Shown here: positions 8,941 to 42,176 of the stretch, piece by piece
Layout of the letters: each line of letters starts with the position of its first letter
Position numbering within the stretch: position 1 is the stretch's first letter
Assembly (NCBI GenBank): GCA_902546975.1
Contig: CACCLU010000004.1
Coordinates: forward strand, 89,134 to 153,133
DNA: 64,000 nucleotides
Direction of reading: 5' to 3'
Origin: an uncultured Alphaproteobacteria bacterium
GTDB lineage: Bacteria; Pseudomonadota; Alphaproteobacteria; HIMB59
Notes under the pieces: model-generated
Told to the model about the DNA's origin: nothing
Seen by the model: the letters and a program-made list of their open reading frames with translations, nothing else
Databases searched by the model: none
Made by a program: the position numbers and the translations under genes

Positions 8941-10137
8941 ATGATAGATTATATACAGTTATTTAAAGATAGAAATCTATTCAATCAATGCACTAATGAA
9001 ATAGAACTTAATAATTTACTCAATAAGAAAAAAATTATTTTTTATATTGGATTTGATGCAACTGCTGATGCATTACATGCCGGAAGTCTTGTTCAATTAA
9101 GAGCTATTAAGACTCTAATCAAACATGGTCATCAGGCTATAGTACTATTAGGTGGAGGCACAACAAAAATTGGTGACCCCTCTGGCAAAGATGCCTCAAG
9201 ACAAATTTTAACTTACGAAACAATCCAAAAAAATATTGAGAATTTTAAAAGAATATTTGAACATTATTTTAGAGATTTGAAAGAAAATATAAAATTTATA
9301 AATAATGATCAATGGCTTGATAAATTAAATTACATAGAGTTATTGAGAGATTTGGGAAGTCAAGTTTCAATCAATCGTATGCTTACATTTGAGAGTGTTA
9401 AAGAGAGACTTAAAAGAGAGCAATCATTATCATTTTTAGAATTTAATTACATGATACTCCAAAGTTATGATTTTCTTCACTTAAATAAACATGAAAATTG
9501 TGAGTTGCAAATTGGCGGCTCGGATCAATGGGGTAATATCGTTTTGGGTATGGAAATTATATCAAAAATAAACAAAAAAGATGCTTTTGGTCTGACTACA
9601 CCTCTTTTAACTACCTCTACAGGTAAGAAGATGGGCAAGACCGAGCAAGGCGCTGTCTGGATAGATCAAAATAAATACAGCTCTTACGATTTCTATCAGT
9701 ATTGGAGAAATGTGGATGATAATGATGTGGAAAAACTATTACTTATTTTTAGTGATTTAGACAAAGAAGAAATAAAAATATTAATTAAAGAAGATATCAA
9801 TAATGCGAAAAAAAAATTAGCATATTTAGTGACAACAGATTGTCATTCAGAAAGCTCAGCACATGAGGCTGAAGAAAAAGCAAGATCAATTTTTGAAAAT
9901 AATTCTTTCGATAATATTGATGAAATTAACTTTAAAATAGACTCAAAACTCATAGATACACTAACATCCAATAGTACGGTCTCATCAAAATCTGAAGCAA
10001 AAAGGCTAATCGAGGGTGGTGGTATAAAGATTGACGACGAGCAAATCAACGATATTAATCTTACTATTGATAAGTCTTATAACGGAAAAATACTCAAGAT
10101 TGGTAAAAAAAAATATTTTAAAATTATCGTTAAGTAA
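8941..10137 (+). CDS. tyrS: Tyrosine--tRNA ligase
   Basis: YIGFDATADALHAGS, QIGGSDQWGNI, KMGKT, C-terminal S4 domain. Confidence 0.97.
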   Translation: MIDYIQLFKDRNLFNQCTNEIELNNLLNKKKIIFYIGFDATADALHAGSLVQLRAIKTLIKHGHQAIVLLGGGTTKIGDPSGKDASRQILTYETIQKNIENFKRIFEHYFRDLKENIKFINNDQWLDKLNYIELLRDLGSQVSINRMLTFESVKERLKREQSLSFLEFNYMILQSYDFLHLNKHENCELQIGGSDQWGNIVLGMEIISKINKKDAFGLTTPLLTTSTGKKMGKTEQGAVWIDQNKYSSYDFYQYWRNVDDNDVEKLLLIFSDLDKEEIKILIKEDINNAKKKLAYLVTTDCHSESSAHEAEEKARSIFENNSFDNIDEINFKIDSKLIDTLTSNSTVSSKSEAKRLIEGGGIKIDDEQINDINLTIDKSYNGKILKIGKKKYFKIIVK

Positions 10138-11146
10138 CCAATATATCTTTTATAGCATCATTAACAAAATTTAAATCATCTTTGGACTTACCTTCTCCAG
10201 CATAGTGACCGTAGCTTGAAGGAATGATTCGTAATTCACCATTTTTAATATTTTTTAATTCAATTTCATTATCCTCTGGGGGGAAGTATAAATCATTTTT
10301 ACCTGGCATTAAAATACATCGCGCAGTAATAGAGTTAAGAGCTTTATCAAATTGATTATTAAATTTATTATTGTTGCTAATGTCGTGCTCTTGCCAAGTT
10401 CTTATCATCGCTAATAAATCATTTGCATCCTTACGATAATAAATTCTATTCCAAAGTTTATCCAAAACTTCTTTTGCATCTTTGTAACCATCATCGATAT
10501 ATTTTTTTTCCCTAAACCAGTCTTGCCCATGCGCCCATCCAGCCCATACTCTTGCCATTGTTGTTTTTCCATTTTGAGGTTGTTTTTCATAAATTCCAGA
10601 ATTCCAGTTTGGATCTGAAGTCAAAGCAGCATATACACCCTCTAAAAATACATATGTATGCTCTGTGGTTTTCGCATGACCACACATTGAAATCATATTT
10701 TCTACCATGTCTGGAAAATATGACGCCCACTGAAAAGCTTGTTGTCCTCCCATTGACCAGCCTATTACTAATTTAATTTTTTCTATGTTAAATATTTCTT
10801 TTAGAAGTGTGTATTGTGCTTGCACGTTATCATATATTGTAATTAAGGGAAAATTAGGTCCATTAAAGGGTTTTTCTGTATTACTGGGTGAGGATGAAAC
10901 ACCATTACAAAACATATTTGGAATAATGATGAAATATTTATCTGGATCTATGGGAAAATTATTACCAATCAGATATCCTTGCTCAAGATGTGTACCAGCA
11001 TACCTAGTAGGAAATAAAATTACATTTGATTTGTCAGAATTTAGTTTCCCAAATGCTAAATAATTTAATTGTAAATCTATTATGTCACCTGATTTTAATT
11101 TGAAATTATTTAGTTGGTATTTATGTAGTTCCTCTTTACTAATCAA
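10130..11146 (-). CDS. Homoserine O-acetyltransferase-like (MetX-fold) alpha/beta hydrolase; substrate unknown
   Basis: IIIPNMFCNGVSSSPSN, GWSMGGQQAFQWA nucleophile elbow, DLYFPP Asp, YGHYAG His. Confidence 0.7.
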   Translation of the reverse strand: MISKEELHKYQLNNFKLKSGDIIDLQLNYLAFGKLNSDKSNVILFPTRYAGTHLEQGYLIGNNFPIDPDKYFIIIPNMFCNGVSSSPSNTEKPFNGPNFPLITIYDNVQAQYTLLKEIFNIEKIKLVIGWSMGGQQAFQWASYFPDMVENMISMCGHAKTTEHTYVFLEGVYAALTSDPNWNSGIYEKQPQNGKTTMARVWAGWAHGQDWFREKKYIDDGYKDAKEVLDKLWNRIYYRKDANDLLAMIRTWQEHDISNNNKFNNQFDKALNSITARCILMPGKNDLYFPPEDNEIELKNIKNGELRIIPSSYGHYAGEGKSKDDLNFVNDAIKDILVT

Positions 11147-12544
11147 TTAAAATAACTTTAAATATTCTTTGATTTCCCAATCAGTTGTAGTTGTATGATA
11201 TCTAGACCACTCATCATATTTATATCCAATAAAATTGTTTATCATAGCCTCAGAAAAAACTTTTTTAGTTAATTTATCAGCAGCAAAAGCGTCTACTGCC
11301 TCTAATAAATTTCTTGGCAGTGTAGTAACCTCTTTTTTTTCTTTCTCGGTCAAATCATAAAGACTTTTATTAGTTGGTTTTGGGGGCTTCATTTTTTTGT
11401 CGATACCCTCTGTAACAGCTGCGGCTAATAAAGAAAAAGTTAAATAAGGATTTTGAGTTAAATCAGACGCCCTATTTTCTATACAATATCTATTTTGCGG
11501 TAGTCTTATCATAGCTGATCTATTATTACTGCCGTATGTCATGTGTGTAGGAGCCCATGTATGACGGCCACCATCAAGGCCCTCAACAGTAGGAACAAAT
11601 CCATTATATGAGTTAACAGTTGGGCACGCTAGAGCTGTAATCGCTGCTCCATGTTTTAAAATTCCAGCGACAGCATTGTAGGCTTTATCAGAGAAATTAT
11701 TCCCATTCTTATATATGTTATTATTTTTCTTTTTAATTGATGCCACACTATGATTGATGTGAGCGCCAGCTCTCCAATCACTAATAGTTGTCTTTGGCAT
11801 AAATGATACAAAATATCCATATTTTTTTGCAACTTCCTTTAGTAATACTCTTAAAAATACAAATCTATCAGCCATCCCTAGAATATCTGTGTAACCGAAA
11901 TCTAATTCATACTGGCCATATGCACCCTCAGCAACGACGTCATGGAGATCCCATTTCAAATCATTATTTAAAATATCTATTATTTCTTTTAAAAAATGCA
12001 TTCCATCTATTGAGTACTCTGAGTCATACCCAAAAGCTTGTCTTCTCAAATTTATAGGATCTCTATCAATTGCTTTAACTGGTTTGTCGCCCTCCCACTT
12101 CATTAAGAAAAATTCAGGTTCAATACCAACAAAAAATTTCAAGTCAGATTTAGCGCTTTCCTTTATTTGTTTTTTTAACGTCATTCTCGGGCAAACATCG
12201 TAAGGTTTGTCATTCCAATATAAATCTGCAAAAACCCATGCACATGTTTTATCCCATGGACATATAACAAGACTATCCAAATCTGGCACAGGGATTTGAT
12301 CATTATCTGCTGGGGTTAATTCTGGAACAAAGGAAACAGAATGAACAGCAAATTGAGGGCCTTTACCCATACAAAGATCCTCAAAATCAGATATAGGCAT
12401 AGGCTTAGTTTTTGGACTACCCAGAAAATCAATCCAATTAGAATAAATGTATTTTACTCCTTTTTTTTCTAAATCCTTTTTTATTTTTCTAACTTTTTTT
12501 ACATCAGGTAAGGCGTCTTTAAAATTTTCAAAATATTGACCCAA
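11147..12544 (-). CDS. Glutamine synthetase-like gamma-glutamyl-amine ligase (paralog 3)
   Basis: GIEPEF, GQYELDF, FMPK, HINHS, NNRSAMIRLP, IENRASD..NPY; TTG start with GGAGGAG Shine-Dalgarno; flap reads TWAP rather than EAP. Confidence 0.85.
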   Translation of the reverse strand: MGQYFENFKDALPDVKKVRKIKKDLEKKGVKYIYSNWIDFLGSPKTKPMPISDFEDLCMGKGPQFAVHSVSFVPELTPADNDQIPVPDLDSLVICPWDKTCAWVFADLYWNDKPYDVCPRMTLKKQIKESAKSDLKFFVGIEPEFFLMKWEGDKPVKAIDRDPINLRRQAFGYDSEYSIDGMHFLKEIIDILNNDLKWDLHDVVAEGAYGQYELDFGYTDILGMADRFVFLRVLLKEVAKKYGYFVSFMPKTTISDWRAGAHINHSVASIKKKNNNIYKNGNNFSDKAYNAVAGILKHGAAITALACPTVNSYNGFVPTVEGLDGGRHTWAPTHMTYGSNNRSAMIRLPQNRYCIENRASDLTQNPYLTFSLLAAAVTEGIDKKMKPPKPTNKSLYDLTEKEKKEVTTLPRNLLEAVDAFAADKLTKKVFSEAMINNFIGYKYDEWSRYHTTTTDWEIKEYLKLF

Positions 12545-12620
12545 GTTAGTCTCCTCCTAAAATTTAAATCTTATCGAATTGAAATTATATGACCATAATA
12601 TAAAATTACTACTTCAAATT

Positions 12621-12866
12621 ATGAATATTGATTACTTTAAAAAATCATGGATTAAATTTTACAAAAGAGGCTTTATGATGGGATTCTTTGTTTTAACTTT
12701 TATACTCACTGTTGATCAGTTTTTACAGACACCACTTTTTTTTAGTAAGATTACAGATATAAAAGTATTTATGTTCATTATATCCACTATTTTTTTTGCA
12801 GCAGTGTTTTGTGGTCTTTTAGCAGTGATTTTTTTATCACTAATTATGATCGCTACTAAAAAATAA
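12621..12866 (+). CDS. Small hypothetical membrane protein (ATG start preferred over the upstream TTG at 12579)
   Basis: Fills an otherwise empty gap; two hydrophobic stretches; no recognisable family. Confidence 0.4.
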   Translation: MNIDYFKKSWIKFYKRGFMMGFFVLTFILTVDQFLQTPLFFSKITDIKVFMFIISTIFFAAVFCGLLAVIFLSLIMIATKK

Positions 12867-13607
12867 TTATAATTTAATATTTTCTAACCAATTCAGTAAT
12901 TCAAGTTCTCTGTTAAATTGATCTTCATTTTCAAAACTTTGTAATTTATTTAATAATGCTTCAAATTCATTTTCACTCATAATCTTTAAATAATTTCTTT
13001 TCCAATAACTCATTAATTTACCGATATAGTTGTATGGTAGTTCTGGATGATATTGAGTACAAAATATGTTTTGTTTTTTATGACATATAGATTGAATAGA
13101 ATGATTATTCTCAGAAATTATGTCAAAGTCCTTGGGAAGAGTTTCTAAACTATCGTAATGATGACCAGGGGCAGTAAATAAATTTTTTTTATTTTTATAA
13201 ACAAAATGATTTTTTATAATTTTTATTTTTTCAGAATATCCAAACTCTGGACTCATAGAACTTGATATTTTTCCTCCAAATGCTGTTACAACCACTTGAA
13301 GACCCCAACAACTTCCCCAAATTGGTCTTTCTAGAGTTGCTATTCTATCAAATATCTTCAACTGATTTTTATTGTGATCATTGTCATCATAAATATTACC
13401 GAGACCTCCGGTCCATAAAAAGGCATCGTAATCTTCAAAACTAAATTTATTTACATCCTCAATGTAAGGTTTATAAACCGAGATATTTGAGAGGGGATTT
13501 TGCTTTTTAATAATTTCTTCAAAAAAACTATATTGATAAGAAGAATTTGATTTAACATGTTCATTATCATGGTTTTGATCCATGCCACTGATAATTAGTA
13601 AATTCAA
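12867..13607 (-). CDS. Class I glutamine amidotransferase-like protein (putative gamma-glutamyl-amide hydrolase)
   Basis: WTGG, nucleophile GSCWGLQ, QYHPE; no synthase domain. Confidence 0.85.
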   Translation of the reverse strand: MNLLIISGMDQNHDNEHVKSNSSYQYSFFEEIIKKQNPLSNISVYKPYIEDVNKFSFEDYDAFLWTGGLGNIYDDNDHNKNQLKIFDRIATLERPIWGSCWGLQVVVTAFGGKISSSMSPEFGYSEKIKIIKNHFVYKNKKNLFTAPGHHYDSLETLPKDFDIISENNHSIQSICHKKQNIFCTQYHPELPYNYIGKLMSYWKRNYLKIMSENEFEALLNKLQSFENEDQFNRELELLNWLENIKL

Positions 13608-13793: not shown

Positions 13794-13819
13794 TAAGGCG
13801 GGGATAATTCCCCGCCTTA
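13794..13819. terminator. Perfect 11-bp hairpin after the amt operon
   Basis: TAAGGCGGGGA-taat-TCCCCGCCTTA, GC-rich in an AT-rich background. Confidence 0.7.
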
Positions 13820-13828: not shown

Positions 13829-14002
13829 TTATTTTGTTTTTTTTGCAGTATCAGACTCGTGTCTTGCTGTTGCCATAGTGACTAGCACGCATAGAGCAAT
13901 AACAAAAAGGGTCCAAAATATCAGTGCACCTTCACTGTTGGCATAAGTGAAATAAGCGTCCACACCTTCCCAACTATTTTCAGGTCCTGGAAATGTATTC
14001 AT
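13829..14002 (-). CDS. Small membrane protein (57 aa) co-transcribed with amt, not in the ORF track
   Basis: MNTFPGPENSWEGVDAYFTYANSEGALIFWTLFVIALCVLVTMATARHESDTAKKTK; strong SD AAGGAAGGAG; starts 21 nt after the amt stop. Confidence 0.75.
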   Translation of the reverse strand: MNTFPGPENSWEGVDAYFTYANSEGALIFWTLFVIALCVLVTMATARHESDTAKKTK

Positions 14003-14022: not shown

Positions 14023-15300
14023 TTACTGATATGCCTTGAGATTTAACTCAGCGCTATCAATACCTGCTTTTTGAACTGCATCTGGTACACGTAACCAATT
14101 CATCATTTTCATAATGAATGATAAACCATAACCAGGCACAAATCCTACTAAGAACATGACTATACATCCAACTAACTGTCCACCAAAACTTGTTGGAGGA
14201 ATATCACCAGATGCTGGATAGCCTGAAGCAAATAATCCCATTGCAATCACACCCCATATACCGGCAACTCCATGAACAGATATAGCTCCTACTGGATCAT
14301 CAATCTTGAAAACACTGTGTAACCAATTATTCGCAGGAATAATTATAACACCGCCAACAAAACCGAGAACAAAGGCTAATCCTGGATACCAAACATCAAG
14401 CCCAGACGCACAGGAGAAAATACCTGCAAGACCACCTGACATCATCCAGAATGGGTTACCTTTACTCATCCAGAATGCACCAATCATTCCTCCACCTAGA
14501 CCCATGAGGGTATTGAAAGCGAAAGATGATAATGTTGCTGGAGCACCGTAAATGTTTATCCATCCACCAAACTCTGCACCTGCCCAGATTAAACAACCAC
14601 CGAGGAATCCGAAGAAACCAACAATAATCATTAAAAGACCAATAAATGAGAAACGAAGATCATGACCCTCAATCTCATTCGCAGAACCGTCAGCATTGTA
14701 TTTACCAACTCTAGGTCCTAAGTTTAAGACAACTCCGAAAGCAAACCAACCTGCTACCATGTGAACAACACCAGCTGCTCCAACATCATGATATCCGAAT
14801 TGTGTTACTAACCAACCATCAGGATGCCAGCCCCATGAAGCGGCTAAGATCCATGCTACAGACCCTAAAACAACAGCCAAGAAAGTAAATGAGCTAATTC
14901 TTATTCTCTCAAGAACAGATCCTGAAAAAATAGATGCTGTAGTACAAGCAAATAATGTAAATGCTGCCCAGAAAACACCTGTGGCTTGGTCACTTAACAT
15001 TGGCCCCATAGATACATTCCATGGAGTACCATAACCGTCAAGTGCTATTGGAGTAAATCCCTCTGGAAATGCAAGATAAATATACCAACCAAATAACCAG
15101 AAGGTTGGTATCATAAACGCGAACGCTAAAAGGTTTTTTGTAGCTGAAGAGACCGCGTTTTTAAAACGAGACGATCCTACTTCATACATCAAGAAACCTA
15201 CGTGAATTGCAATCATTAACGCAGTACACCACCAATAGTAAGCTTCCATACTGACGTTCGCTTGCATCATCACGTACGATTCAAGTTCTTCAAGTGTCAT
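14023..15300 (-). CDS. amt: Amt-family ammonium/methylammonium transporter
   Basis: About 11 TM segments, twin His (GVVHMVAG, ISVHGVAG), DDPVGA, GxxER; SD AGGAGG. Confidence 0.92.
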   Translation of the reverse strand: MTLEELESYVMMQANVSMEAYYWWCTALMIAIHVGFLMYEVGSSRFKNAVSSATKNLLAFAFMIPTFWLFGWYIYLAFPEGFTPIALDGYGTPWNVSMGPMLSDQATGVFWAAFTLFACTTASIFSGSVLERIRISSFTFLAVVLGSVAWILAASWGWHPDGWLVTQFGYHDVGAAGVVHMVAGWFAFGVVLNLGPRVGKYNADGSANEIEGHDLRFSFIGLLMIIVGFFGFLGGCLIWAGAEFGGWINIYGAPATLSSFAFNTLMGLGGGMIGAFWMSKGNPFWMMSGGLAGIFSCASGLDVWYPGLAFVLGFVGGVIIIPANNWLHSVFKIDDPVGAISVHGVAGIWGVIAMGLFASGYPASGDIPPTSFGGQLVGCIVMFLVGFVPGYGLSFIMKMMNWLRVPDAVQKAGIDSAELNLKAYQ

Positions 15301-15533: not shown

Positions 15534-16841
15534 ATGGCAACTAACCTTCACCAATTTGCAAAAAAAAATGGTGTTAAATATTTTTTTGTAAGCTTTGTAG
15601 ATTTATTTGGAGTGCTCAGATCAAAGCTTGTACCTGCAACAGCTATAGATGAAATTCAATCTGAAGGTGCTGGATTTGCTGGTTTTGCAACATGGCTTGA
15701 TATGTCTCCAGCTGACTCTGATATGTTTGGTATGCCTGATGGTGATAGTGTTATCCAGCTTCCTTGGAATAAAGAAATAGCTTGGGTTGCCTCAGATTTG
15801 TTTATGGATGGTAAACCAGTAGAAACCTCACCCAGAATAGCCTTAAAAAGACAAATAGAAAAAGCAGCTAAAAAAAATCTTTATATGAAGTCAGGTGTTG
15901 AGTGTGAATTTTTTCTAGTTAATGAAGATGGGACTTCTTTATCAGATCAAAGGGATACGCAAGCAAAACCATGCTATGACTCCTCTGCATTAATGAGAAG
16001 ATATGATGTTATTACTGAAATATGTGACTCAATGATCTCACTTGGATGGAAACCTTACCAAAACGACCATGAGGATGCGAATGGTCAATTTGAAATGAAC
16101 TGGGATTTTTCAGATTGTTTAGTAACTGCAGATAGACATGCTTTTTTTAAATTCATGGTGAAATCTATTGCAGAAAAACATTCATTAAGGGCGACTTTCA
16201 TGCCCAAACCTTTCACAAATTTAACAGGCAATGGATGTCATTGTCATATTTCTATTTGGGATAAATCTGGCAAAAAAAATATGTTTTTAGATAAAAAAGA
16301 TGAATTAGGTTTATCCAAAACTGGTTACAATTTCTTAGGTGGAATAATGGAAAGTGCGGACAAAATGGCTGCTGTTTTTAATCCAACTGTAAACTCCTAT
16401 AAAAGAATTAACGGTAGTGTTACAACATCAGGTGCAACTTGGTCACCAAGTTCGATTACTTGGGCAGGTAACAACAGAACACACATGGTAAGAGTTCCTG
16501 GAGCAGGAAGATTTGAATTGAGATTAATGGATGGAGCTACAAATCCTTATTTACTTCAAGCAGGTATTTTACTTTTAGGATTGGACGGTTTAAATAATAA
16601 AAGAGACCCTGGTAAAAGATTAGATATTAATATGTACACAGAGGGTCACAAGGCTGGAAAAGTAAAGAAATTGCCATTAAATCTTCTTGATGCAATACGT
16701 GATTTTGATAAATCAAAAATCATTAGAGCAGGTTTTGGTGATGATTTAGTTAATAGCTATGTCAAACTAAAAAATCAAGATTGGGGTACTTTTAATAAAT
16801 ACCTTTCTAATTGGGAAAGAGAAACAACTCTAGATTGTTAA
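15534..16841 (+). CDS. gmaS: Gamma-glutamylmethylamide synthetase (GlnT/type III-annotated GS)
   Basis: GAGFAGFATWLDMSP, NDHEDANGQFEMNW, SGATWSP; methylamine-cluster context. Confidence 0.88.
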   Translation: MATNLHQFAKKNGVKYFFVSFVDLFGVLRSKLVPATAIDEIQSEGAGFAGFATWLDMSPADSDMFGMPDGDSVIQLPWNKEIAWVASDLFMDGKPVETSPRIALKRQIEKAAKKNLYMKSGVECEFFLVNEDGTSLSDQRDTQAKPCYDSSALMRRYDVITEICDSMISLGWKPYQNDHEDANGQFEMNWDFSDCLVTADRHAFFKFMVKSIAEKHSLRATFMPKPFTNLTGNGCHCHISIWDKSGKKNMFLDKKDELGLSKTGYNFLGGIMESADKMAAVFNPTVNSYKRINGSVTTSGATWSPSSITWAGNNRTHMVRVPGAGRFELRLMDGATNPYLLQAGILLLGLDGLNNKRDPGKRLDINMYTEGHKAGKVKKLPLNLLDAIRDFDKSKIIRAGFGDDLVNSYVKLKNQDWGTFNKYLSNWERETTLDC

Positions 16842-23893: not shown

Positions 23894-23952
23894 TATTTTA
23901 GTAACCTCCAAGCAGTTACATTTTGTCTGTGAGGTATGAAAAAAACACATTT

Positions 23953-23971
23953 TGTTTCATATTATGAAACA
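23953..23971. promoter_or_regulatory. Palindromic operator TGTTTCAT-ATT-ATGAAACA (perfect copy)
   Basis: Perfect inverted repeat upstream of the extra mgs-like operon; the same motif occurs at 24799, 32918 and 42246. Confidence 0.75.
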
Positions 23972-32917: not shown

Positions 32918-32936
32918 TGTTCCATAATATGAAACA
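32918..32936. promoter_or_regulatory. Operator copy TGTTCCATAATATGAAACA in the divergent soxB/tmm promoter region
   Basis: Near-perfect copy of the 19-bp palindrome. Confidence 0.75.
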
Positions 32937-34376: not shown

Positions 34377-34550
34377 ATGTCCAATCATACTCTTAATTTT
34401 ATTGGATGGGTTTTATTTATTATATCTGCTGTAGGCTTTATAATATCAAGTATTGGTAGTTTCTGGGCTATGTTTGGAAGTCTTTTTTTCTTTGTAGCTT
34501 GTTTTGTTTTTCTAATACCATTCTTTAGAAAAGAAAAAAATAAAGATTAA
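34377..34550 (+). CDS. Small two-TM protein (57 aa) directly after tmm, not in the ORF track
   Basis: MSNHTLNFIGWVLFIISAVGFIISSIGSFWAMFGSLFFFVACFVFLIPFFRKEKNKD; starts 7 nt after the tmm stop. Confidence 0.7.
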   Translation: MSNHTLNFIGWVLFIISAVGFIISSIGSFWAMFGSLFFFVACFVFLIPFFRKEKNKD

Positions 34551-35716
34551 GGAATATTTTTGTCAATCCCCTTTGGGATGAGTTTTTCTTTATCGTAAAA
34601 TGGTAAATCAATTATTTCGCAGTCAGCTAAATTATCATTAACAGAATCAACTTTAATTTGAAATTCTTTCCACTCACCAGGGTAGTCAAATCGTACATAA
34701 CCCACATACTTTTCTAAAGTAGGAGACCAAGTTGATGCTGAAAGATATCCAATTTTTTGTTCATTTGATGATAAATAAACTTTTGCTCTTGGAATAATTT
34801 CTTTATCGGTAGTTATACCAAATAATCTCTTTCCAAATTTTGTTGATAAAAATTCTAAAGCTTTTTTTCCAATAAAATTTTCTTTTTCCAAATCAACTAG
34901 AGAGCCTAATCCAATTTCATAAGGATTCATAGAAGAGTCAAAATCTGTGTTGTTATCTAGGATGCCTGCTTCAATTCTTCTTATATCCATTGATTCTAGA
35001 CCATCAAATGTCATACCCATCGGATATCCGATTTCACAAATAGTATCCCAAATTTTTTTATAATTAGTCTTATTTCCTAGAGTATAAATTTCGAAGCCTA
35101 ATTCAGAAGTCCATCCTGTTCTAGAGACATATACATTTTGATCAGCTATTTTTGAATAGCCTGAATGATAATATTTAAAATCATTGTTTATTTCTCCATT
35201 TGTCAGCTTTGAAATTATATCTTTAGAAATTGGACCTTGTATTTGTATCACTCGAGAATTAGGGTCAGTTATAGTAACTTCATAGTTTTTTTGATGAGCT
35301 TTTAACCAAGTTTCAAGGGGTCCATCAGGTTGGACGTACCAAAATTTATTTTGCTCTAATCTAAAAAGGACACCATCTATAAATATTCCGCCATTTTCAT
35401 AACAGGCAATTGCATATTTACCCCTGCCTACTTTCATATCTTTAATTTTGCGACAAAATATTTTATCAAGAAATTCCTCTGACTGTGGTCCCTCTATTTG
35501 AATAGGTTTTTCAGGTACATCATACATGACAGCTTTTCTTCTCAAATTCCAGTAACTATCTTTAATTTTATTTCCAACAGATATTGGAAAATAGCGATCG
35601 GCATATACACCATAAGAATTATCTTCTTTATGATAAAATTCAAAAAAAGGTCCTTTATCAAACCTGTTATCACTAATTGGTAAAGTTGAAGATTTATCTA
35701 AAAAAATTGAACTCAT
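34547..35716 (-). CDS. GcvT-family aminomethyltransferase / THF-dependent demethylase-like protein
   Basis: MYDVPE, IDGVLFRL, VSRTGWTSELGFEIY, RRIEAGILD; directly downstream of tdm. Confidence 0.85.
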   Translation of the reverse strand: MSSIFLDKSSTLPISDNRFDKGPFFEFYHKEDNSYGVYADRYFPISVGNKIKDSYWNLRRKAVMYDVPEKPIQIEGPQSEEFLDKIFCRKIKDMKVGRGKYAIACYENGGIFIDGVLFRLEQNKFWYVQPDGPLETWLKAHQKNYEVTITDPNSRVIQIQGPISKDIISKLTNGEINNDFKYYHSGYSKIADQNVYVSRTGWTSELGFEIYTLGNKTNYKKIWDTICEIGYPMGMTFDGLESMDIRRIEAGILDNNTDFDSSMNPYEIGLGSLVDLEKENFIGKKALEFLSTKFGKRLFGITTDKEIIPRAKVYLSSNEQKIGYLSASTWSPTLEKYVGYVRFDYPGEWKEFQIKVDSVNDNLADCEIIDLPFYDKEKLIPKGIDKNIP

Positions 35717-35732: not shown

Positions 35733-38084
35733 TTAGGATTTAACTCTTGATTTAGTTGGATCATAAAATGGGAAAGGTACAACCTTAGCCTTTATTCTTT
35801 TTTGTTGACCATCTAACTTACCTATTTCAACTTCAGTATTAAGCTCGCTGTATTTGACATTGATTTTACAAAGAGCAATATTTTTATTTAGAACAGGGGA
35901 TTTCATACCACTTGTTATAATGCCAACTTGTTCCCTTCCATTATTTGAAGGATGAACACAGTCACCATGCCCGGTAGTTTCATTTCCCTCAATCTCAAGT
36001 CCAACTAGTTTTCTTTGAGGGTTTGTCTTTCTTTCAAGTAAAGCTTCTTTACCAATAAAGTTATCTTCTTTTGATTTGAGAGGAACAGTAAAACCAATTC
36101 CCGCCTCAAACGGATCAGTTTGATCGTCGAATTCATAATTTGCAAAAACTAAACCAGCTTCAATTCTGACTAAATCCAAAGCGTCCAATCCCATAGGCAC
36201 AATTCCAAACTCCTCTCCGGCTTTCATTACAGCATCCCAAACTTCAGCAGCTTTACTCGGATGACAGAATATTTCATAACCTAGTTCACCTGTATATCCA
36301 GTTCTAGAAACCATTAAAGGAATTCCATCTAAAGTATTTAACCTAGCTATAGAAAACCTAAACCACTCTAAATCAGTCAATGATGTTTGATGAGGAGGGG
36401 TCCAGATTATCTTTTTTAATATTTCTCTACTCTTTGGCCCTTGGACGGAAACATTATGTAAATTATCAGTAGAAGATTTAATCCATACCTTTAAGTTATG
36501 TTCCTTTGCTTTTTCTCTTAACCATTCACCGCAATACTCATCTCCACAAATCCACCTAAAATTATCATCCGTCATTTTGAATAGTGTACCGTCATCAAGC
36601 ATACCTCCATGCTCGTAGCACATCGCAGTGTAAACAACTTGGCCAACAGATAGTTTTCTGATGTTTCTGGTGCAAGTCATTTGTAAAAGTTCTTCAGCGT
36701 CTGGGCCTCGTACTTCAAACTTTCTTAATGCTGATAGATCCATAATGATAGCCCGCTCTCTGCAAGCTTCATATTCTTGGTGCGCCCCGTAATTATTATA
36801 ATTAGAAGCTAACCAGAAGCCTTTGTACTCAACAATATTTTCAGTAAGTTTTGATACTCTTGGGTGAAAACCAGTTTCTTTAGTTAATTTTGGATCAGAG
36901 TCTGCTTTCATTCTAAATGCCATTCCTTTACTAAAAGGTCTATTCGGTCTATAGACTCTAACAAAAATGTCAGTAGGATTCCATCCATTAGCTGCATCTA
37001 CATCGTCTGGACAGGCAGAGGAGACACAAACTAAATTTTTCAGGGCTTTAAACATCACATAGTCTCCTGGTCTAGACCATGGTTCATCAAAAATTAAAGC
37101 ATTATTTGCATCAATGGCTGTGTTGTAAAATAAATTTATAGCATTCCAACCTAGTCTTTTTCTCACAGTAAACTTATCTAATACATAATTGAAATTATCT
37201 GAGCAATTTGGATGACCAAAATAGCCAATATCATCATAAAATTTCGAAGTACATGCAGTACCAAACGTATCATGTCTTCCGACAGTGTCTCTGTAGACTT
37301 CAACCATGGGCATTTGATTTTCATCGTAATATTTAGAATGGAGACCTGGCATTGGAAAAGCACTACCCATTAAATATCTACTATTAGTTGTATCTATTGA
37401 GAGCTCTTGGCCTTTTTGAAGGCTCTCTGAGTCGAATGCCATAAAGTCAGAACATTGTCTTCCATAAACATCAATTATCTGAATAAAATCTCCCTCTTTG
37501 ACCTCATAGGCCATTGCGGTATATCTTTTAACAAAAATTTCTTCAACAGGATCCATTAAAGGGTCTGGTAATAAAAATTCTCCCTCTTCACGTTTTTTAT
37601 TTCTTTGAACAATTACTCGTAGTTGGGATGCAGGAATATTTTCATGTGTAATTTCACTTTCGCCTGGTGCAGAAATTATACAAACAATGGAGTCGTTTGT
37701 TTTAAACTCCTCAATTGAACCTGAAAGTGAATTTTGAGAAAATACTAAAATCGATTGATTAATAGACTCTACCTCATATCCAAGTTTTTTTAATTTAGTA
37801 CGTGCTATTTGAGCTGACTCCTCCTCGCTCGTAAGGATTTTTTTTGTTAATTGTCCGTTGTGCTCGTTATTAAGACCTAAAGGTGATAGATTACACTCTC
37901 GCTTTGAATTAAAGCATACAATCTCGGCCTGTTGATGGCCTTCTAAATTAATTATTTTAATTTTGTCATCTGGTTCTAATTTTAATGTGAGAGAACCTCC
38001 ACCAATTACCAAATAATTTTCTAAGTCGTCACCAAGAGCTGGTAATCCAGGTTCATAAGGTTGAGTAACTCTTGGGATGATCAT
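35733..38084 (-). CDS. tdm: TMAO demethylase (DUF1989 + GcvT fusion)
   Basis: N-terminal DUF1989 repeats with GRQCSDF, HDTFGTAC, SSACPDD; C-terminal GcvT (DLSALRKFEV, RTGYTGELGYEI). Confidence 0.9.
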   Translation of the reverse strand: MIIPRVTQPYEPGLPALGDDLENYLVIGGGSLTLKLEPDDKIKIINLEGHQQAEIVCFNSKRECNLSPLGLNNEHNGQLTKKILTSEEESAQIARTKLKKLGYEVESINQSILVFSQNSLSGSIEEFKTNDSIVCIISAPGESEITHENIPASQLRVIVQRNKKREEGEFLLPDPLMDPVEEIFVKRYTAMAYEVKEGDFIQIIDVYGRQCSDFMAFDSESLQKGQELSIDTTNSRYLMGSAFPMPGLHSKYYDENQMPMVEVYRDTVGRHDTFGTACTSKFYDDIGYFGHPNCSDNFNYVLDKFTVRKRLGWNAINLFYNTAIDANNALIFDEPWSRPGDYVMFKALKNLVCVSSACPDDVDAANGWNPTDIFVRVYRPNRPFSKGMAFRMKADSDPKLTKETGFHPRVSKLTENIVEYKGFWLASNYNNYGAHQEYEACRERAIIMDLSALRKFEVRGPDAEELLQMTCTRNIRKLSVGQVVYTAMCYEHGGMLDDGTLFKMTDDNFRWICGDEYCGEWLREKAKEHNLKVWIKSSTDNLHNVSVQGPKSREILKKIIWTPPHQTSLTDLEWFRFSIARLNTLDGIPLMVSRTGYTGELGYEIFCHPSKAAEVWDAVMKAGEEFGIVPMGLDALDLVRIEAGLVFANYEFDDQTDPFEAGIGFTVPLKSKEDNFIGKEALLERKTNPQRKLVGLEIEGNETTGHGDCVHPSNNGREQVGIITSGMKSPVLNKNIALCKINVKYSELNTEVEIGKLDGQQKRIKAKVVPFPFYDPTKSRVKS

Positions 38085-38087
38085 TCT

Positions 38088-40160
38088 CTATGCTAATCCA
38101 AGAGCTTTTTTTCTTTCCTCGGCCCATTTTCTCACAATTACATCTACTGAAATAGCCATTAAAGAAACGAATAAACCTAGTGTTATAGCAACACCAGGAC
38201 CGTCTTGAGCTCTTGATAATGCTCCAAAAATAAGTTGGCCTAAATCTTCAGTTCCAATTAACGCTCCTAAAATTACCATTTGAAGAGTGAAAACAACTGT
38301 TTGATTAACGCCAAGCATAATTGTAGGGAAAGCTAATGGAATTTCAATATTTGTCCATCTTTGTATTCTCGAGACACCGGACATGGTGCCTGCTTCATGT
38401 AAGGAGAGTGGGACACTATTTAGACCCCAGACAGTATATCGAGTAGCAGGAACAGTAGCATAAACAATAGCAGCTATTAACACTGAGGTATCAGTAATAT
38501 TGAACAAGAAGATAACAGGTATTAAATAAACAAAGGATGGAAATGTTTCAAAAAAATCACACACGGAGAGAATAATTTTTGACCCCCTCTCAGTTTGTGC
38601 AAATATTGATCCAACTATTATTCCATTGAGAGATGCCATAATTACAGCAAATGTTGCCATGTACATTGTAATTAAAGCTCTGTCCCAATATTTTGACATA
38701 GCAATAAATAACATCATGCCCCCAACTAATAAGCTTGTTCTAATTCCACCAATGATATAAGCGACACCCATAGTAAGAGTCAACGTGGCAACTACTGGCA
38801 TACCTAGATAAGCTTTTTTCATAGGACCTAGAACTTCAGTTAGAAGAAACTTATTGAAAGAATTGAGAGAATAGAAAAAAGTTTCCCAAACCCAATCAAC
38901 AGCAGCATCAATATAGTGAGCAAAAGTAAAACCTTTTTCAATAGGTATGACATATAAGTAATTAATTTTATCGAAGTAACCATTTGCTATAAAAGCAATG
39001 ATTGAAAAAATTAAAATTGAGGTTCCAAAGATGATTAAGAGTTTATATCTTTGAAAAAAAGATAAATTTTCAAAATAATCAACTTGTTTATTCGCCCATG
39101 CTTTTGTAAATCGATCAAGGATAACAGCAATTAAGACGATACAAAAACCTGCTTCAGCAGCTTTGCCAATTTTTAAACTATTTAAGGCAATTTTTAAATT
39201 TAGACCAAGTCCTTTTGCACCAACGAAAGACGCAATTACAACCATTGCTAGGCATTGCATAATAACTGTATTGACACCGTTTAAAATATCTCGTCTAGCT
39301 GTTGGTATTAATACTTTAAATAAAAGCTGAGTTTTTGTACAACCGCTCATAAGTCCCGCTTCTACTACCTCAGGTGAAATTCGTTTTAATCCTAAAATGG
39401 TATTTCTTATCATTGGTGGGGTAGCAATTACTATAGTAGCTATCGAACCTGCATGATCGCCTAAACCAAATAAAGCTATAATAGGGACTAGATATGCAAA
39501 TTGAGGCATAGTTTGCATTACATTTAGTACTGGTTGCAAAGCTGTCTCAACTTTTCTATCTAGGTATCCCCATATTCCAAAGGATAGACCTAATACAAAA
39601 CAAATTGGTGTTGTAATTAGAACAAAAGAGAGTGTTTGTATAGATGGTACCCAATTTCCAAAGATTGATACATATAAAGATCCTATCCCTCCAAGTAAAG
39701 CCAATCTAATACCACCAAGTTGGAACCCAAGCAAAAAAGCACCGACTGTAGCTGCTGTCCATGGAAGTGCTGGCCATGTCATCCAATCATTATCTTTCAG
39801 CCAAGCATCACTAACAAAAACATCAATTATTTTGTCACCACCCAATAAAAGTTCTCTTACAAAAGTAATTAAAAATAATAAACCTTTAGATATAGATTTT
39901 GTGAATTCACGAAATGCTGCTTTTTCTTCATACATTTCAAATATGGGGTCCCATACTTTGAGAGGAAACCATTCATATAAAGCTGCATATATAATCTCAT
40001 TTAACTTAATTGGTATGAAAGCTAATATAGAGGGAAGTCTCCAAAAATAGTTACCCTCATTATGTGGCACTAAATTGTATAAAAGCAAAAATACAATTAA
40101 TAAAATACCAAACTGAGCTAGTTTTGAAGATCTAATGATATTTAAATAATTCTTATCCAC
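38088..40160 (-). CDS. tmoV: TMAO ABC transporter permease (two fused ProW-like domains)
   Basis: Two repeats (LNVMQTMPQFAYLVP, CDFFETFPSFVYLIP), each followed by an EAA-like loop. Confidence 0.85.
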   Translation of the reverse strand: MDKNYLNIIRSSKLAQFGILLIVFLLLYNLVPHNEGNYFWRLPSILAFIPIKLNEIIYAALYEWFPLKVWDPIFEMYEEKAAFREFTKSISKGLLFLITFVRELLLGGDKIIDVFVSDAWLKDNDWMTWPALPWTAATVGAFLLGFQLGGIRLALLGGIGSLYVSIFGNWVPSIQTLSFVLITTPICFVLGLSFGIWGYLDRKVETALQPVLNVMQTMPQFAYLVPIIALFGLGDHAGSIATIVIATPPMIRNTILGLKRISPEVVEAGLMSGCTKTQLLFKVLIPTARRDILNGVNTVIMQCLAMVVIASFVGAKGLGLNLKIALNSLKIGKAAEAGFCIVLIAVILDRFTKAWANKQVDYFENLSFFQRYKLLIIFGTSILIFSIIAFIANGYFDKINYLYVIPIEKGFTFAHYIDAAVDWVWETFFYSLNSFNKFLLTEVLGPMKKAYLGMPVVATLTLTMGVAYIIGGIRTSLLVGGMMLFIAMSKYWDRALITMYMATFAVIMASLNGIIVGSIFAQTERGSKIILSVCDFFETFPSFVYLIPVIFLFNITDTSVLIAAIVYATVPATRYTVWGLNSVPLSLHEAGTMSGVSRIQRWTNIEIPLAFPTIMLGVNQTVVFTLQMVILGALIGTEDLGQLIFGALSRAQDGPGVAITLGLFVSLMAISVDVIVRKWAEERKKALGLA

Positions 40161-41166
40161 CGAATAAAACTTTTATAACTTTAGAAGGGTTTATAGAGCC
40201 AACTACTGAATTTTTATCATCAACAACTTTAATAATTTCTTTACTATTTAAAATTTTTTCTGCTACGGTTTCTATAATATCATCTTTTTTAACAGCTATT
40301 TCTCCGGAGGCATGTGGATCAGAGGCATCCATGATTGACTCTATCTTCAATACTTTTTCACGAGGGACATCCTCAGTAAATTTCCTAACATAGTCAGTAG
40401 CAGGATTTAAAACTATATTATCTGGTTTGTCTAATTGTTCTATTATTCCATCTTTCATAATAGCTATTCTATCAGCAAGCCTCAATGCTTCGTCAAAGTC
40501 ATGAGTGACAAACATAATTGTTTTATTCAAAACAGACTGGAGTCTCAAAAACTCGTCTTGCATTTCTTTTCTAATTAGAGGATCAAGTGCAGAGAAAGGC
40601 TCATCTAAAAACCAAATATCAGGTTCAACTGCTAATGACCGCGCAATTCCAACTCTTTGTTGCTGTCCACCAGAGAGTTCTCTTGGAAAGTAATTTTCTC
40701 TACCCTTTAGGCCTACAAGCTCAACCATTTCAAGTGCTTTATGAATGCTATTTTCAGTAGTGACTCCTTTTACTTGAAGCGGAAAAGCAATATTTTCTAA
40801 AACTGTTTTATGTGGAAGAAGAGCGAAATTTTGAAATACCATTCCCATCTTTTCTCTTCTTAGTTCGATTAATTGCTTATTATTCATTAAGCAAATATCC
40901 TCACCATCAATTAAAATTTTACCAGAAGTTGCGTCTGTTAATCTAGATATACACCTTAGTAATGTTGATTTTCCTGATCCAGAGAGACCCATAACTACAA
41001 GCATTTCTCCCTGATTTACATCAAAAGAAGCATTGTTAACGCCAACTATGCACCCTGCTTCTTGAAATTTTTTGGCGTCTACATTCCCTCCACTTTCAGA
41101 TAAAAGTGTCTGAGCGTTATTACCAAAAATTTTATAGACAGATGAACAGCTAATAGTTGGTGACAT
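40153..41166 (-). CDS. tmoW: TMAO/betaine ABC transporter ATPase
   Basis: GLSGSGKST, LSGGQQQRVG, DEPFSALDPLIR (ProV-like). Confidence 0.88.
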   Translation of the reverse strand: MSPTISCSSVYKIFGNNAQTLLSESGGNVDAKKFQEAGCIVGVNNASFDVNQGEMLVVMGLSGSGKSTLLRCISRLTDATSGKILIDGEDICLMNNKQLIELRREKMGMVFQNFALLPHKTVLENIAFPLQVKGVTTENSIHKALEMVELVGLKGRENYFPRELSGGQQQRVGIARSLAVEPDIWFLDEPFSALDPLIRKEMQDEFLRLQSVLNKTIMFVTHDFDEALRLADRIAIMKDGIIEQLDKPDNIVLNPATDYVRKFTEDVPREKVLKIESIMDASDPHASGEIAVKKDDIIETVAEKILNSKEIIKVVDDKNSVVGSINPSKVIKVLFGG

Positions 41167-41192
41167 AAATTAATCTTTCCTAAAATAAAATT

Positions 41193-41221
41193 AATTCCCC
41201 CCTCAAAAAGAGGGAGGAATT
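41193..41221 (-). terminator. Hairpin between tmoX and tmoW
   Basis: Minus strand AAUUCCUCCCUC-UUUUU-GAGGGGGGAAUU, fully paired using one U:G wobble, followed by a U-rich tract. Confidence 0.65.
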
Positions 41222-41234
41222 CAAATTAGAAATA

Positions 41235-42176
41235 TTACTTCATAAATAGATCTATTTGATCTCTATTATTTGCAATATATGCAGTTGCAGCTTCAGCATG
41301 AGTCATGCCTTCGTTGTCAACGTAGTTTGCCATTTCACCAATGTTAGGTGCTGTAAATTCCATTTTTGTATAGAACTTATATGCAGATGTATGAGTGATT
41401 GGGAACTTAATGTGAGCAGCTTTTTTAAGCCAACCTTTTGGAGAACCACAACCAGTAGTCTCTAAAGAACCACCTTGTTCTAGTCTACATCCCTCGAAGT
41501 ATGGAGGAAATTCAATGAAAGTAAAACCAGCTGCATCTGTAAAGTTTGGAGACCAGTTAAAGATAATTGTGCCTCTTCCCTCTTTTTTAGCTGCTTCTAA
41601 TTCAGCCCATAATGCATCTGCAGTACCTGCAAATTTTACCATCCATAAATCATCTATACCAAGACCTTTAAGTCTGTTAGGCATAACTTCTGTGTGCCAC
41701 TCATAAGGACCTTCTAACCATCTACCTTTACCTTCAGAGTCTGGTGTTGCAAAGTTTGCTGCACACTCTGGAGATTTAAGTGCTTCCCAGCTTGGAAGAC
41801 CAGGACATAATCCATCTTCGATTACCCAGTTAGGAACACCCATTTCTTCAAAAGTAATAAGGTCGTGACTTCCAGCATCAATTAATCCACCTTTATCCAT
41901 AGCTTCATAAAAAGGCAGAGCCATTGTTGACTCCCAAGTTTCGTGAGCAACGTGAAGTTCACCTACTCTGACAGCTTCATATCTTGTTGCTGACTCAGCA
42001 GGGACTAATTCAACATCATAACCAAGCTCTTCAAAAGCTTGTGCCATAACGTTAGCCATAACGATTTGGCTTGACCAGTTTAAAACTGGAATTCTAATCG
42101 GGTCTGCTGCTTTTGCTACAGTTGTAAAACCAGCAAACAGGACTAGAGCGTAAAATAATGAAATAAATTTTTTCAT
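41235..42176 (-). CDS. tmoX: TMAO ABC transporter substrate-binding protein
   Basis: Signal peptide; NWSSQ, HETWE, EEMGVPNWV, FNWSPNF; adjacent to tdm. Confidence 0.85.
   Translation of the reverse strand: MKKFISLFYALVLFAGFTTVAKAADPIRIPVLNWSSQIVMANVMAQAFEELGYDVELVPAESATRYEAVRVGELHVAHETWESTMALPFYEAMDKGGLIDAGSHDLITFEEMGVPNWVIEDGLCPGLPSWEALKSPECAANFATPDSEGKGRWLEGPYEWHTEVMPNRLKGLGIDDLWMVKFAGTADALWAELEAAKKEGRGTIIFNWSPNFTDAAGFTFIEFPPYFEGCRLEQGGSLETTGCGSPKGWLKKAAHIKFPITHTSAYKFYTKMEFTAPNIGEMANYVDNEGMTHAEAATAYIANNRDQIDLFMK

Follow-up and report, generated by a model that had tools for sequence, protein, structure and literature searches.

Here, we describe a genomic block for the catabolism of methylated amines in an uncultured alphaproteobacterium of the HIMB59 lineage (assembly GCA_902546975.1; 1.29 Mb, 12 contigs, 94% complete), centered on the interval between tyrS and alr in a 64,000-nucleotide stretch of contig CACCLU010000004.1 (positions 89,134 to 153,133; hereafter the window). 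We interpret the tyrS-alr interval as a fixed catabolic supercluster for methylated amines that is inherited vertically, rather than as a mobile island. Beside genes for trimethylamine N-oxide (TMAO) and monomethylamine (MMA) it holds a cassette of seven genes, encoding a DAO-family flavoprotein (DAO), a glutamine synthetase (GS)-like ligase (GSL3), a second set of N-methylglutamate synthase-type subunits (MgsA2, MgsB2 and MgsC2), orf158 and orf184, which we propose as the best genomic candidate for the missing dimethylamine (DMA) step in such bacteria. Taken as a whole, a supercluster in which this cassette serves as a Dmm-independent DMA route is the best explanation of the block, and one toward which we lean slightly; that the cassette itself handles DMA we put a little short of an even chance.

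The DMA step in SAR11 was called unknown by both Smith et al. (PMC3870248) and Gao et al. (PMC8918994), and dmmDABC is absent from all SAR11 (PMC5520151). Given that strain HTCC1062 grows, if weakly, with TMAO as its sole nitrogen source, an unrecognized DMA step must exist, for which Gao et al. suggested 'an isoenzyme of DmmDABC' (PMC8918994). Three lines of genomic evidence connect the cassette with this step. Among 401 Alphaproteobacteria drawn evenly by family, the TMAO demethylase Tdm was encoded by 33 genomes and a GSL3 ortholog (54 to 76% identity) by 38, with 24 carrying both (odds ratio 67, Fisher p = 1e-21), and GSL3 lay no more than 10 kb from tdm in at least 10 families. The 33 Tdm carriers were also nearly partitioned between GSL3 and a strong match to PF11927, the DmmA-containing family: 23 had GSL3 only, 6 had strong PF11927 only, one (G392) had both and 3 had neither, two of these last being drafts from genera that otherwise carry GSL3. 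This near-exclusion was significant in tests that ignore kinship (Fisher p = 4.8e-4 by genome and 0.004 by family). Finally, two candidate DMA producers are encoded here, Tdm and an N,N-dimethylformamidase (DMFase) homolog on contig 2, and no established DMA-degrading system was found in the 94%-complete genome: the Dmm operon is absent, the single PF11927 match being weak (57.6 bits) and free of dmmB/C/D-like neighbors, and no protein matched PF00724 (trimethylamine [TMA]/DMA dehydrogenase type, with flavin mononucleotide [FMN] and 4Fe-4S, of the old yellow enzyme type) in a search that was positive in 13 of 14 reference genomes. The open reading frame (ORF) behind the weak match, resembling the alpha subunit of heme-dependent oxidative N-demethylase (contig 1, 44397 to 45110, 237 aa, also present in two congeners), was considered as a hidden DmmA and rejected on context, as it stands alone among unrelated genes with no reductase or tetrahydrofolate (THF)-binding neighbors.

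The cassette is widespread and keeps its composition. With one genome scanned per species, close relatives of GSL3 were encoded at 597 loci or more, a protein that database sources label merely 'glutamine synthetase (family protein)'. In the 68 loci of Pelagibacter type the order is tmoWVX (minus strand), tdm, DAO, GSL3, MgsA2, MgsB2, MgsC2, orf158, amt, sometimes MgsA1B1C1, and then gmaS; amt also follows the cassette in several other Alphaproteobacteria. The run GSL3-MgsA2B2C2-orf158 recurs in 18 of 20 loci from other alphaproteobacterial families (guanine-cytosine [GC] content 0.40 to 0.69), 15 of these 18 with an adjacent DAO gene and 13 with a convergent orf184 (28 to 37% identity; 13 of the 20 loci), a gene that is absent from Pelagibacter loci. 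The cassette adjoins tdm, tmm or tmoXVW in 8 of the 20, and amt and sox/mgd genes are further neighbors elsewhere. Relatives 82 to 87% identical to a Dongiaceae-type ortholog of GSL3 are encoded in metagenome-assembled genomes of Steroidobacteraceae; for four proteins of Steroidobacteraceae and other Gammaproteobacteria (P0155, P0156, P0159 and P0228) the identity is 82 to 85%, which suggests either inter-class transfer of the cassette or extreme constraint. In one alphaproteobacterium (L101, G374:C8:213000-232999), a GSL3 ortholog (69%) occurs without MgsA2B2C2 and adjoins a MetX-like hydrolase (44%), a ligase that is GmaS-like or sister to the third ligase, GSL1 (41%), and a canonical gmaS-mgsABC-mgdA run; such a mixture may help to match each ligase with the synthase that it supplies.

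The block and its flanks are composed of the following features, given by position in the window and strand, with scores from family models where these apply.

8941-10137 (+), tyrS, the left flank
10130-11146 (-), MetX-like alpha/beta hydrolase, partner of GSL1 in the third module (NCBIfam PRK07581 subfamily, 424.6 bits; Pfam Abhydrolase_1)
11147-12544 (-), GSL1, GS-like gamma-glutamyl ligase of the third module (TIGR03105 358.7 bits, below the cut-off of 469.6)
12579-12866 (+), orf95, small hydrophobic ORF whose position is kept within the genus at 45 to 99%
12867-13607 (-), class I glutamine amidotransferase or Peptidase C26-like protein (Pfam GATase 68.8 bits; Peptidase_C26 27.1 bits)
13829-14002 (-), 57-aa single-helix membrane ORF downstream of amt (from translation; 53 to 100% in the genus, L057 and G002)
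14023-15300 (-), Amt-family transporter for ammonium or methylammonium (TIGR00836 212.5 bits, below cut-off)
15534-16841 (+), GmaS, canonical gamma-glutamylmethylamide synthetase (TIGR03105 643.3 bits, cut-off 469.6)
16849-17403 (+), orf184, cassette companion convergent to orf158, beside the cassette in other Alphaproteobacteria
17451-17927 (-), orf158, final cassette gene, directly after MgsC2 in every locus and 65 to 78% identical across families
17937-19271 (-), MgsC2, FMN-domain subunit with a Cys motif (matches the GltB FMN region)
19271-20107 (-), MgsB2, GXGXG subunit (Pfam GXGXG 59 bits)
20095-21036 (-), MgsA2, N-terminal nucleophile (Ntn)-type, class II amidotransferase subunit (matches to glmS/purF-type GATase; N-terminal MCGI)
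21056-22525 (-), GSL3, GS-like ligase of the cassette (TIGR03105 300.9 bits, below the cut-off of 469.6)
22547-23893 (-), DAO-family flavin adenine dinucleotide (FAD) flavoprotein of the cassette (Pfam DAO 121.5 bits; ortholog of SAR11_1304)
23953-23971, operator 1, the perfect palindrome TGTTTCATATTATGAAACA, about 60 bp upstream of the DAO start
24011-24781 (-), IclR-family transcriptional regulator (PcaR/KdgR/BhcR/IclR-type NCBIfam models, E down to 2e-32, below equivalog cut-offs)
24799-24817, operator 2, TGTTCCACAGTATGAAACA, upstream of iclR
24852-27735 (-), MgsC1-MgsB1-MgsA1, canonical N-methylglutamate synthase, orthologous to SAR11_1313-1315 glxBCD (PMC3160333)
27741-32861 (-), MgdD-C-B-A (soxG-A-D-B type), N-methylglutamate dehydrogenase (TIGR01372, TIGR01373 and TIGR01374 above cut-off)
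32918-32936, operator 3, TGTTCCATAATATGAAACA, in the divergent mgdA/tmm promoter region
33035-34369 (+), Tmm, trimethylamine monooxygenase (NF058570 738.4 bits, cut-off 675)
34547-35716 (-), free-standing GcvT-fold aminomethyltransferase-like protein downstream of tdm (Pfam GCV_T, GCV_T_C)
35733-38084 (-), Tdm, TMAO demethylase yielding DMA and formaldehyde (NF053776 1158.4 bits, cut-off 1100)
38088-42176 (-), TmoW (a fused double permease), TmoV and TmoX, betaine-type ABC importer assigned to TMAO by synteny with tdm
42257-43345 (+), alr, the right flank

The original prediction for this stretch, made from the sequence alone, described three GS-like ligases, two MgsABC-type trios and no DMA monooxygenase between tyrS and alr, with minimal spacers and several overlapping genes, and our ORF coordinates and family scans agree on each point. 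Its statement that almost every gene relates to TMA, TMAO or MMA holds at family level for about 20 of the 28 genes, but not for the GSL1 module (4 genes), orf184, orf158 or the 57-aa ORF. We propose that the block comprises five units. In the first, TmoXWV would import TMAO, Tmm would oxidize TMA to TMAO and Tdm would split TMAO into DMA and formaldehyde; GmaS, MgsABC and MgdABCD would form the second, the canonical MMA route; the IclR regulator and the autonomous paralogous cassette would make up the third, Amt with the 57-aa membrane ORF the fourth, and the third GS-like ligase with the MetX-like hydrolase and the class I amidase the fifth. The longest ORF for DAO (22547-23950) begins 19 codons before the start common to all orthologs (MSLPTK...), and the true start is most likely 23893 and not 23950, which leaves a 117-bp promoter region containing operator 1. 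Searches of Pfam, NCBIfam and PDB sequences returned no match for orf95, orf158 or orf184, and the AlphaFold2 (AF2) model of orf158 (predicted local distance difference test [pLDDT] 60) gave no fold match.

The assignments of the first two units are supported at family level. Tdm and Tmm exceed their NCBIfam equivalog cut-offs and a betaine-type ABC transporter adjoins tdm, the combination expected of TMAO catabolism; in the transporter, TmoV scores 340 bits against TIGR01186 (cut-off 326.6), TmoX 104.8 bits against OpuAC, and TmoW matches ProW/choW-type permeases, the assignment by tdm synteny following PMC8918994. GmaS aligns with the RhGmaS structure 7cql at 613 bits and keeps every pocket and catalytic residue that we checked, including Asp177, Glu186 and the Trp300 flap, and MgdABCD exceeds the cut-offs of TIGR01372 (1328.7 bits), TIGR01373 (693.8 bits) and TIGR01374 (121.1 bits) and falls below that of TIGR01375 (82.6 bits). 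The first Mgs set has the canonical layout of a three-gene synthase adjoining a four-gene soxBDAG-type dehydrogenase, and the genes of the N-methylglutamate pathway known from Methyloversatilis universalis, Methylocella silvestris and Ruegeria pomeroyi (and from SAR11_1313-1316) are present in one full copy within family cut-offs. The free-standing GcvT-like gene is specific to the genus (69% identity in G002), with no ortholog beside tdm in Pelagibacter or other Alphaproteobacteria. As a DMA enzyme it was rejected on this distribution and because a neutral secondary amine makes little chemical sense as the substrate of a THF methyltransferase; by analogy with DmmD, it more likely captures formaldehyde.

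The gene content has a close counterpart in Pelagibacter. In HTCC1062, SAR11_1303 is tdm, SAR11_1304, annotated 'monomeric sarcosine oxidase', corresponds to DAO, SAR11_1305 (glnT) to GSL3, SAR11_1306-1308 (including gltB2) to MgsA2B2C2, SAR11_1310 to amt, SAR11_1313-1315 (glxBCD) to MgsABC1 and SAR11_1316 (glnT) to GmaS (PMC3160333, PMC3870248). The region SAR11_1302-1316 thus shares the families of the present block, including the cassette (SAR11_1304-1309), amt, glxBCD and glnT, and both lack dmmDABC. Unlike in HTCC1062, tmm and mgdABCD here lie in the same block, an IclR regulator and three operator sites are present, the cassette is not directly downstream of tdm, and a third GS-like module and the free GcvT-like gene are added; the hosts also belong to different families or orders, genome taxonomy setting Pelagibacter-like genomes in another order. 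The nearest public relatives of the present genome are GORG single-cell genomes, and the lineage is probably of the HIMB59/AEGEAN-169 type. The paralog redundancy that the original prediction found unexpected in a streamlined genome was not new, since three GS copies and extra sox genes had been called remarkable for SAR11 (PMC3160333, PMC3870248) and gltB2 and the absence of dmm had likewise been reported (PMC3160333, PMC3870248, PMC5520151).

The block is stable across the genus. The distance from tyrS to alr is 32,115 to 32,128 bp in six other species, and gene order is identical in 12 independent single-cell or metagenome assemblies, which excludes an assembly chimera. G002, a congener at greater distance (82% identity in tyrS), keeps this gene order and carries 13.6 kb of extra DNA inserted between tmm and the GcvT-like gene, its tyrS-alr block (G002:C1:76000-126500, loci L105-L107) measuring 45.7 kb, and the same genes are clustered in Pelagibacter in a different order. 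As had been predicted, no integrase, tRNA or direct repeat marks the borders: the whole window contains no tRNA and no integrase-like ORF, direct repeats common to both borders do not exceed chance, and tyrS overlaps the first block gene by 8 bp, leaving no space for an attachment site. Overall GC is 0.34 to 0.41 in the block and 0.27 to 0.32 in the flanks, with the surplus at codon positions 1 and 2; GC at third codon positions (GC3) is 0.17 to 0.30, within about 1 to 2.5 standard deviations (SD) of the genome value of 0.207 +/- 0.036 (707 long ORFs). A mobile island would be expected to show an integrase or recombinase, a tRNA or att repeats at its borders, unusual codon composition and patchy presence in close relatives; none of these was found, and the word 'island' does not fit the block in the sense of something acquired or variable. 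We are highly confident that the supercluster is non-mobile and conserved, and that its paralogs are functionally distinct.

The paralogs are old and differ where it matters for function. The three GS-like ligases are pairwise 28 to 31% identical, and the Mgs pairs 50% (MgsC1/C2), 37% (MgsB1/B2) and 32% (MgsA1/A2). In the tree, GSL3, GmaS and GSL1 form three deep clades; that of GSL3 has a long stem and very short internal branches and is the sister group of GmaS. The GSL3 sequence is the same in 11 species (100% identity) and 87 to 89% identical in congeners whose tyrS is 72 to 83% identical; it is 75 to 78% identical in Pelagibacter-type genomes, against about 50% for their tyrS, and 64 to 76% across alphaproteobacterial families. 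MgsC2 is 79 to 86% identical across families. Conservation of this kind indicates strong purifying selection on each paralog. In all three ligases, the GmaS residues for metal, ATP and glutamate are kept, as is the Trp flap (numbering from RhGmaS, PMC7948447, mapped through the 7cql alignment). GSL3 retains Tyr147, Gln175, Asp177, Glu179, Glu186, Asn188 and Lys30' of GmaS, has Ile for Tyr174 and carries insertions of about 10, 7 and 23 residues that split its TIGR03105 match into two stretches; in GSL1, Asp177, the amine-deprotonating Asp of GmaS, is Val, and Gln175 and Asn188 are both Asp. MgsA1 and MgsA2 both begin MCGI. MgsC2 reads CYHCHTGRCPVGVATQDP at the position where MgsC1 reads FDDWHEGKDPSGINTQDP, keeping a glutamate-synthase-type Cys motif that is lost in MgsC1; the CH-x3-CP part of this motif presumably represents two of the 3Fe-4S ligands of GltB, which number three. 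Differing functional sites, deep clades and purifying selection together make different roles for the paralogs likely. The possibility that they are recent duplicates of identical specificity is ruled out by their low identity, separate clades and divergent sites. The suggestion that they were kept because they act on different amines, giving a wider range, stands as far as they are ancient, constrained and different at functional sites, but a wider range was not demonstrated, and the second module points to DMA.

We tentatively propose that the cassette is a previously unrecognized DMA route via gamma-glutamyl-dimethylamide, N,N-dimethylglutamate and flavoprotein demethylation to N-methylglutamate, a sequence of steps somewhat less probable than not. 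GSL3 would ligate DMA, and perhaps also MMA, to the gamma-carboxyl of glutamate at the expense of ATP, which is chemically possible given that a GmaS ligates DMA, if poorly (Km 16 mM; PMC7948447). MgsA2 would hydrolyze the amide and channel the amine to MgsC2, which would build N,N-dimethylglutamate on a 2-oxo/imino-glutarate skeleton; DAO would strip one methyl group as formaldehyde to give N-methylglutamate, whose oxidation MgdABCD would complete. A direct flavin oxidation of gamma-glutamyl-dimethylamide was considered unlikely, and the route via N,N-dimethylglutamate is preferred, because an amide nitrogen is a poor flavin substrate. All substrates and reactions given for the cassette and the third module are inferred from sequence, and we found no functional study of SAR11_1304-1309 or of the proposed intermediates in the literature searched.

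The cassette would fill the functional slot of DmmDABC, or heme-dependent oxidative N-demethylase (DMA to a monomethyl compound plus formaldehyde), with which it is mutually exclusive among tdm carriers, bar one genome. The two differ in kind: Dmm is a PAS-heme oxygenase with a reductase, whereas the cassette would employ ATP-dependent glutamylation followed by flavin oxidation, and there is no sequence relationship between them. The likeness to the N-methylglutamate pathway is closer. The cassette repeats its ligase, Ntn amidotransferase, GXGXG and FMN subunits and an amine-oxidizing flavoprotein, and keeps the canonical subunit architecture and order (ligase, A, B, C), the Ntn Cys and the GmaS pocket residues. 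Unlike that pathway, its ligase, with three insertions, fails the GmaS/GSIII model cut-off, MgsC2 has the Cys motif, and a single DAO-family protein stands in place of the heterotetrameric MgdABCD; the cassette further adds orf158 and orf184 and is set apart by its link to tdm and its complementarity with dmm.

The predicted regulation points in the same direction. The palindrome TGTTYCA-N5-TGRAACA occurs four times in the 1.29-Mb genome; three strict sites lie in block promoters, and a fourth, which had been placed within the window, is on contig 2, about 60 bp upstream of the DMFase-like operon. Operator 1 keeps its position in relatives L002-L013, L057 and G002, and operator 3 is conserved in G002; the sites are kept in these relatives, which have iclR, and are absent from all Pelagibacter loci, which are without it. 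We infer that this candidate IclR operator joins the cassette, iclR, the mgd-mgs/tmm promoter and the DMFase-like operon in one DMA-centered regulon. The large subunit of the DMFase homolog aligns over its full length with 6lvb_A (647.9 bits; Pfam DMFA2_C 306.8 bits), with identical residues at Y399, Y440 and E521, which we take to be the Fe-binding Tyr/Tyr/Glu ligands of DMFase, and is preceded by a small-subunit-like ORF (E = 0.007 to 6lvb_B). By DMFA2_C, the Tyr/Tyr/Glu residues and the small subunit upstream, the contig 2 protein is a putative member of the N,N-dimethylformamidase family, resembling DmfA1A2 of Paracoccus and Methylobacterium (PDB 6LVB) in its two-subunit composition, full-length alignment and conserved metal ligands. 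The gene is found in 20 of 25 genomes of the genus and in none of 16 of the neighboring family.

The DMFase homolog lies within a published gene neighborhood, the flotillin-associated rhodopsin (FAR) cluster described for Pelagibacterales, HIMB59 and Pseudothioglobus (PMC10308929). On contig 2 (253562-262887), this cluster comprises genes for a rhodopsin-like 232-aa protein, a flotillin-like 662-aa protein, an SCP2-like protein, an alpha/beta hydrolase and a sodium:solute symporter, followed by the IclR-type operator, the two-subunit DMFase homolog and a 119-aa ORF. The 13.6-kb insertion in G002 encodes an Amt-like protein, a flotillin-like protein and an ABC transporter of amide/urea type whose binding protein has 475 aa, together with a paralog of the DMFase pair (59%) and a 171-aa ORF. 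Neither the operator shared with the block nor the in-block DMFase paralog of G002 is known from earlier descriptions.

Several observations weigh against a role of the cassette in DMA use. GSL3 keeps each mappable residue of the GmaS amine pocket, including Asp177, and fits MMA equally well. Eight of the 12 Pelagibacter genomes (reached through L018, L033, L050, L030, L039, L031, L049 and L014; several are closed isolates) encode, genome-wide, MgsC of the cassette type only, with gmaS beside the cassette; having no canonical MgsC, these bacteria may use the cassette synthase as N-methylglutamate synthase, processing gamma-glutamylmethylamide. Of the 38 GSL3 carriers, 14 are without Tdm, and 10, six of them at least 90% complete, are without canonical GmaS. 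PF11927 is broader than DmmA, as 36 of the 43 PF11927 carriers in the class are without Tdm, and the complementarity rests on 21 families and on Fisher tests blind to kinship. Under nitrogen limitation in HTCC1062, the DAO ortholog SAR11_1304 is strongly induced and the GSL3 and MgsC2 orthologs are slightly down (PMC3870248), opposite responses that argue against simple coregulation. Lastly, the substrate of the marine DMFase family and the binding of IclR to the palindrome are sequence-based predictions.

These points feed the strongest rival, that the cassette is a second self-contained MMA (N-methylglutamate) pathway, which we consider unlikely and yet deserving of serious attention. GSL3 would then be a GmaS isoenzyme, MgsA2B2C2 an N-methylglutamate synthase and DAO a monomeric N-methylglutamate oxidase, perhaps of other affinity or serving nitrogen scavenging, and DMA might be excreted or handled otherwise. 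The retained pocket residues and sister position of GSL3 to GmaS agree with such a role, as do the Pelagibacter genomes with cassette-type Mgs only and the GSL3 carriers without canonical GmaS, in which the cassette can stand alone; a genuine oceanic DMA bottleneck was indeed proposed by Lidbury et al. (PMC5520151). The structure model of DAO appears to fit N-methyl amino-acid oxidases best, its closest folds being the heterotetrameric SoxB, ProDH beta, DMGDH and MSOX, a ranking that is weak evidence because the model is poor (pLDDT 54.8, with the FAD domain alone confident); like that of orf158, it does not allow an active site to be read. However, a second MMA pathway leaves unexplained the exclusion between the cassette and the DmmA family among Tdm carriers, the location of the cassette beside tdm rather than mgd, and how HTCC1062 obtains nitrogen from TMAO (PMC8918994), and it gives no account of why a streamlined genome would keep two full sets under purifying selection or of the operator held in common with a DMA-producing amidase homolog.

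A less probable rival, to which we give little weight, is that the substrates of the cassette, the GSL1 module or both are other small primary amines (ethanolamine, ethylamine, aminopropanol, polyamines), handled by a glutamylate-oxidize-release logic as in Puu or Ipu, which would give the wider amine range. The GSL1 module is the sole part of the block that could support such a range. No spacer separates the GSL1 gene from that of its MetX-like hydrolase, and relatives of GSL1 with about 62% identity, common in marine metagenomes, are also present in Ca. Thioglobus. In three of three unrelated contexts (L102, L103 and L104), a GSL1-type ligase is directly followed by an Abhydrolase_1 protein of about 336 aa. 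Two of these pairs lie between genes for Rieske oxygenase alpha subunits and for glyoxalase-fold proteins, and in Ca. Thioglobus a GmaS-type gene lies between the two. These hydrolase and oxygenase partners, the remodeled GSL1 pocket with its lost Asp177 and new Asp at 175 and 188, the PuuD-fold-class class I amidase beside it (the amidotransferase/Peptidase C26-like protein, a candidate gamma-glutamyl-amide hydrolase), the 14 cassette carriers without Tdm and the known promiscuity of GS-like ligases (PMC7948447) are all compatible with other amines.

The resemblance to the Puu, Ipu and Atd-Tdn pathways for putrescine, isopropylamine and aniline is partial. What is shared is a GS-like ligase with a class I amidase (PuuD type) or an FAD oxidase (PuuB type), of which module 3 and the cassette each display a part, the class I amidase and the DAO protein resembling PuuD and PuuB in fold class alone. 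Against it, all three ligases score far under the gamma-glutamylputrescine synthetase PuuA (181.7 to 242 bits, cut-off 650, NF045547), the partner of GSL1 is of MetX fold, no aldehyde dehydrogenase, P450 or dioxygenase was found in the window, and the neighbors of the cassette elsewhere are methylated-amine genes and not polyamine or ethanolamine genes. The last rival would make the block an assembly chimera, or else a genomic island that is variable or was acquired horizontally. It can draw on the elevated block GC, the 82 to 87% identity of GSL3-family proteins between distant taxa, which hints at old cassette transfers, and the extra 13.6 kb in G002, but we give it almost no credence in view of the identical length and order in six independently assembled species, the lack of tRNA, integrase and repeats, the near-genomic GC3 with surplus GC at codon positions 1 and 2, and the flanking genes that overlap or abut the block.

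Some further features were recorded. A GC-rich hairpin (13794-13819) follows the 57-aa membrane ORF downstream of amt, which is 63% identical in L057 and 53% in G002 and has no PII gene nearby. The genome has two more GS-family genes beyond the block: GlnA, which closely precedes the window, and another on contig 3. The Rfam search of the block returned no match, so that riboswitch-like elements of the kind reported upstream of Pelagibacter amt are either outside Rfam or absent here; the sole Rfam match of the window is a thiamine pyrophosphate (TPP) riboswitch (58707-58802, minus strand; 55 bits, gathering threshold 54.3) upstream of a 461-aa ORF (57301-58686).

Dimethylamine is a climate-relevant aerosol precursor. 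In the published view, SAR11-type bacteria are without a DMA-degrading enzyme (Lidbury 2017, PMC5520151). For a missing step flagged since 2013, the tyrS-alr block offers a concrete seven-gene candidate with a probable regulator and operator, and the DMFase homolog would be a second possible DMA source. If the cassette is indeed a DMA route, the proposed 'metabolic bottleneck' of SAR11 would be closed and the most abundant marine heterotrophs would consume DMA, which would come from TMAO and from dimethylformamidase-type amidases, under IclR control in this lineage. If the cassette is instead a second MMA route, estimates of marine methylamine turnover that count gmaS/mgsABC alone would need revision, because most sampled Pelagibacter carry only the cassette-type synthase; surveys using canonical mgsABC would miss the 8 of 12 Pelagibacter genomes in which the cassette type is the only one.

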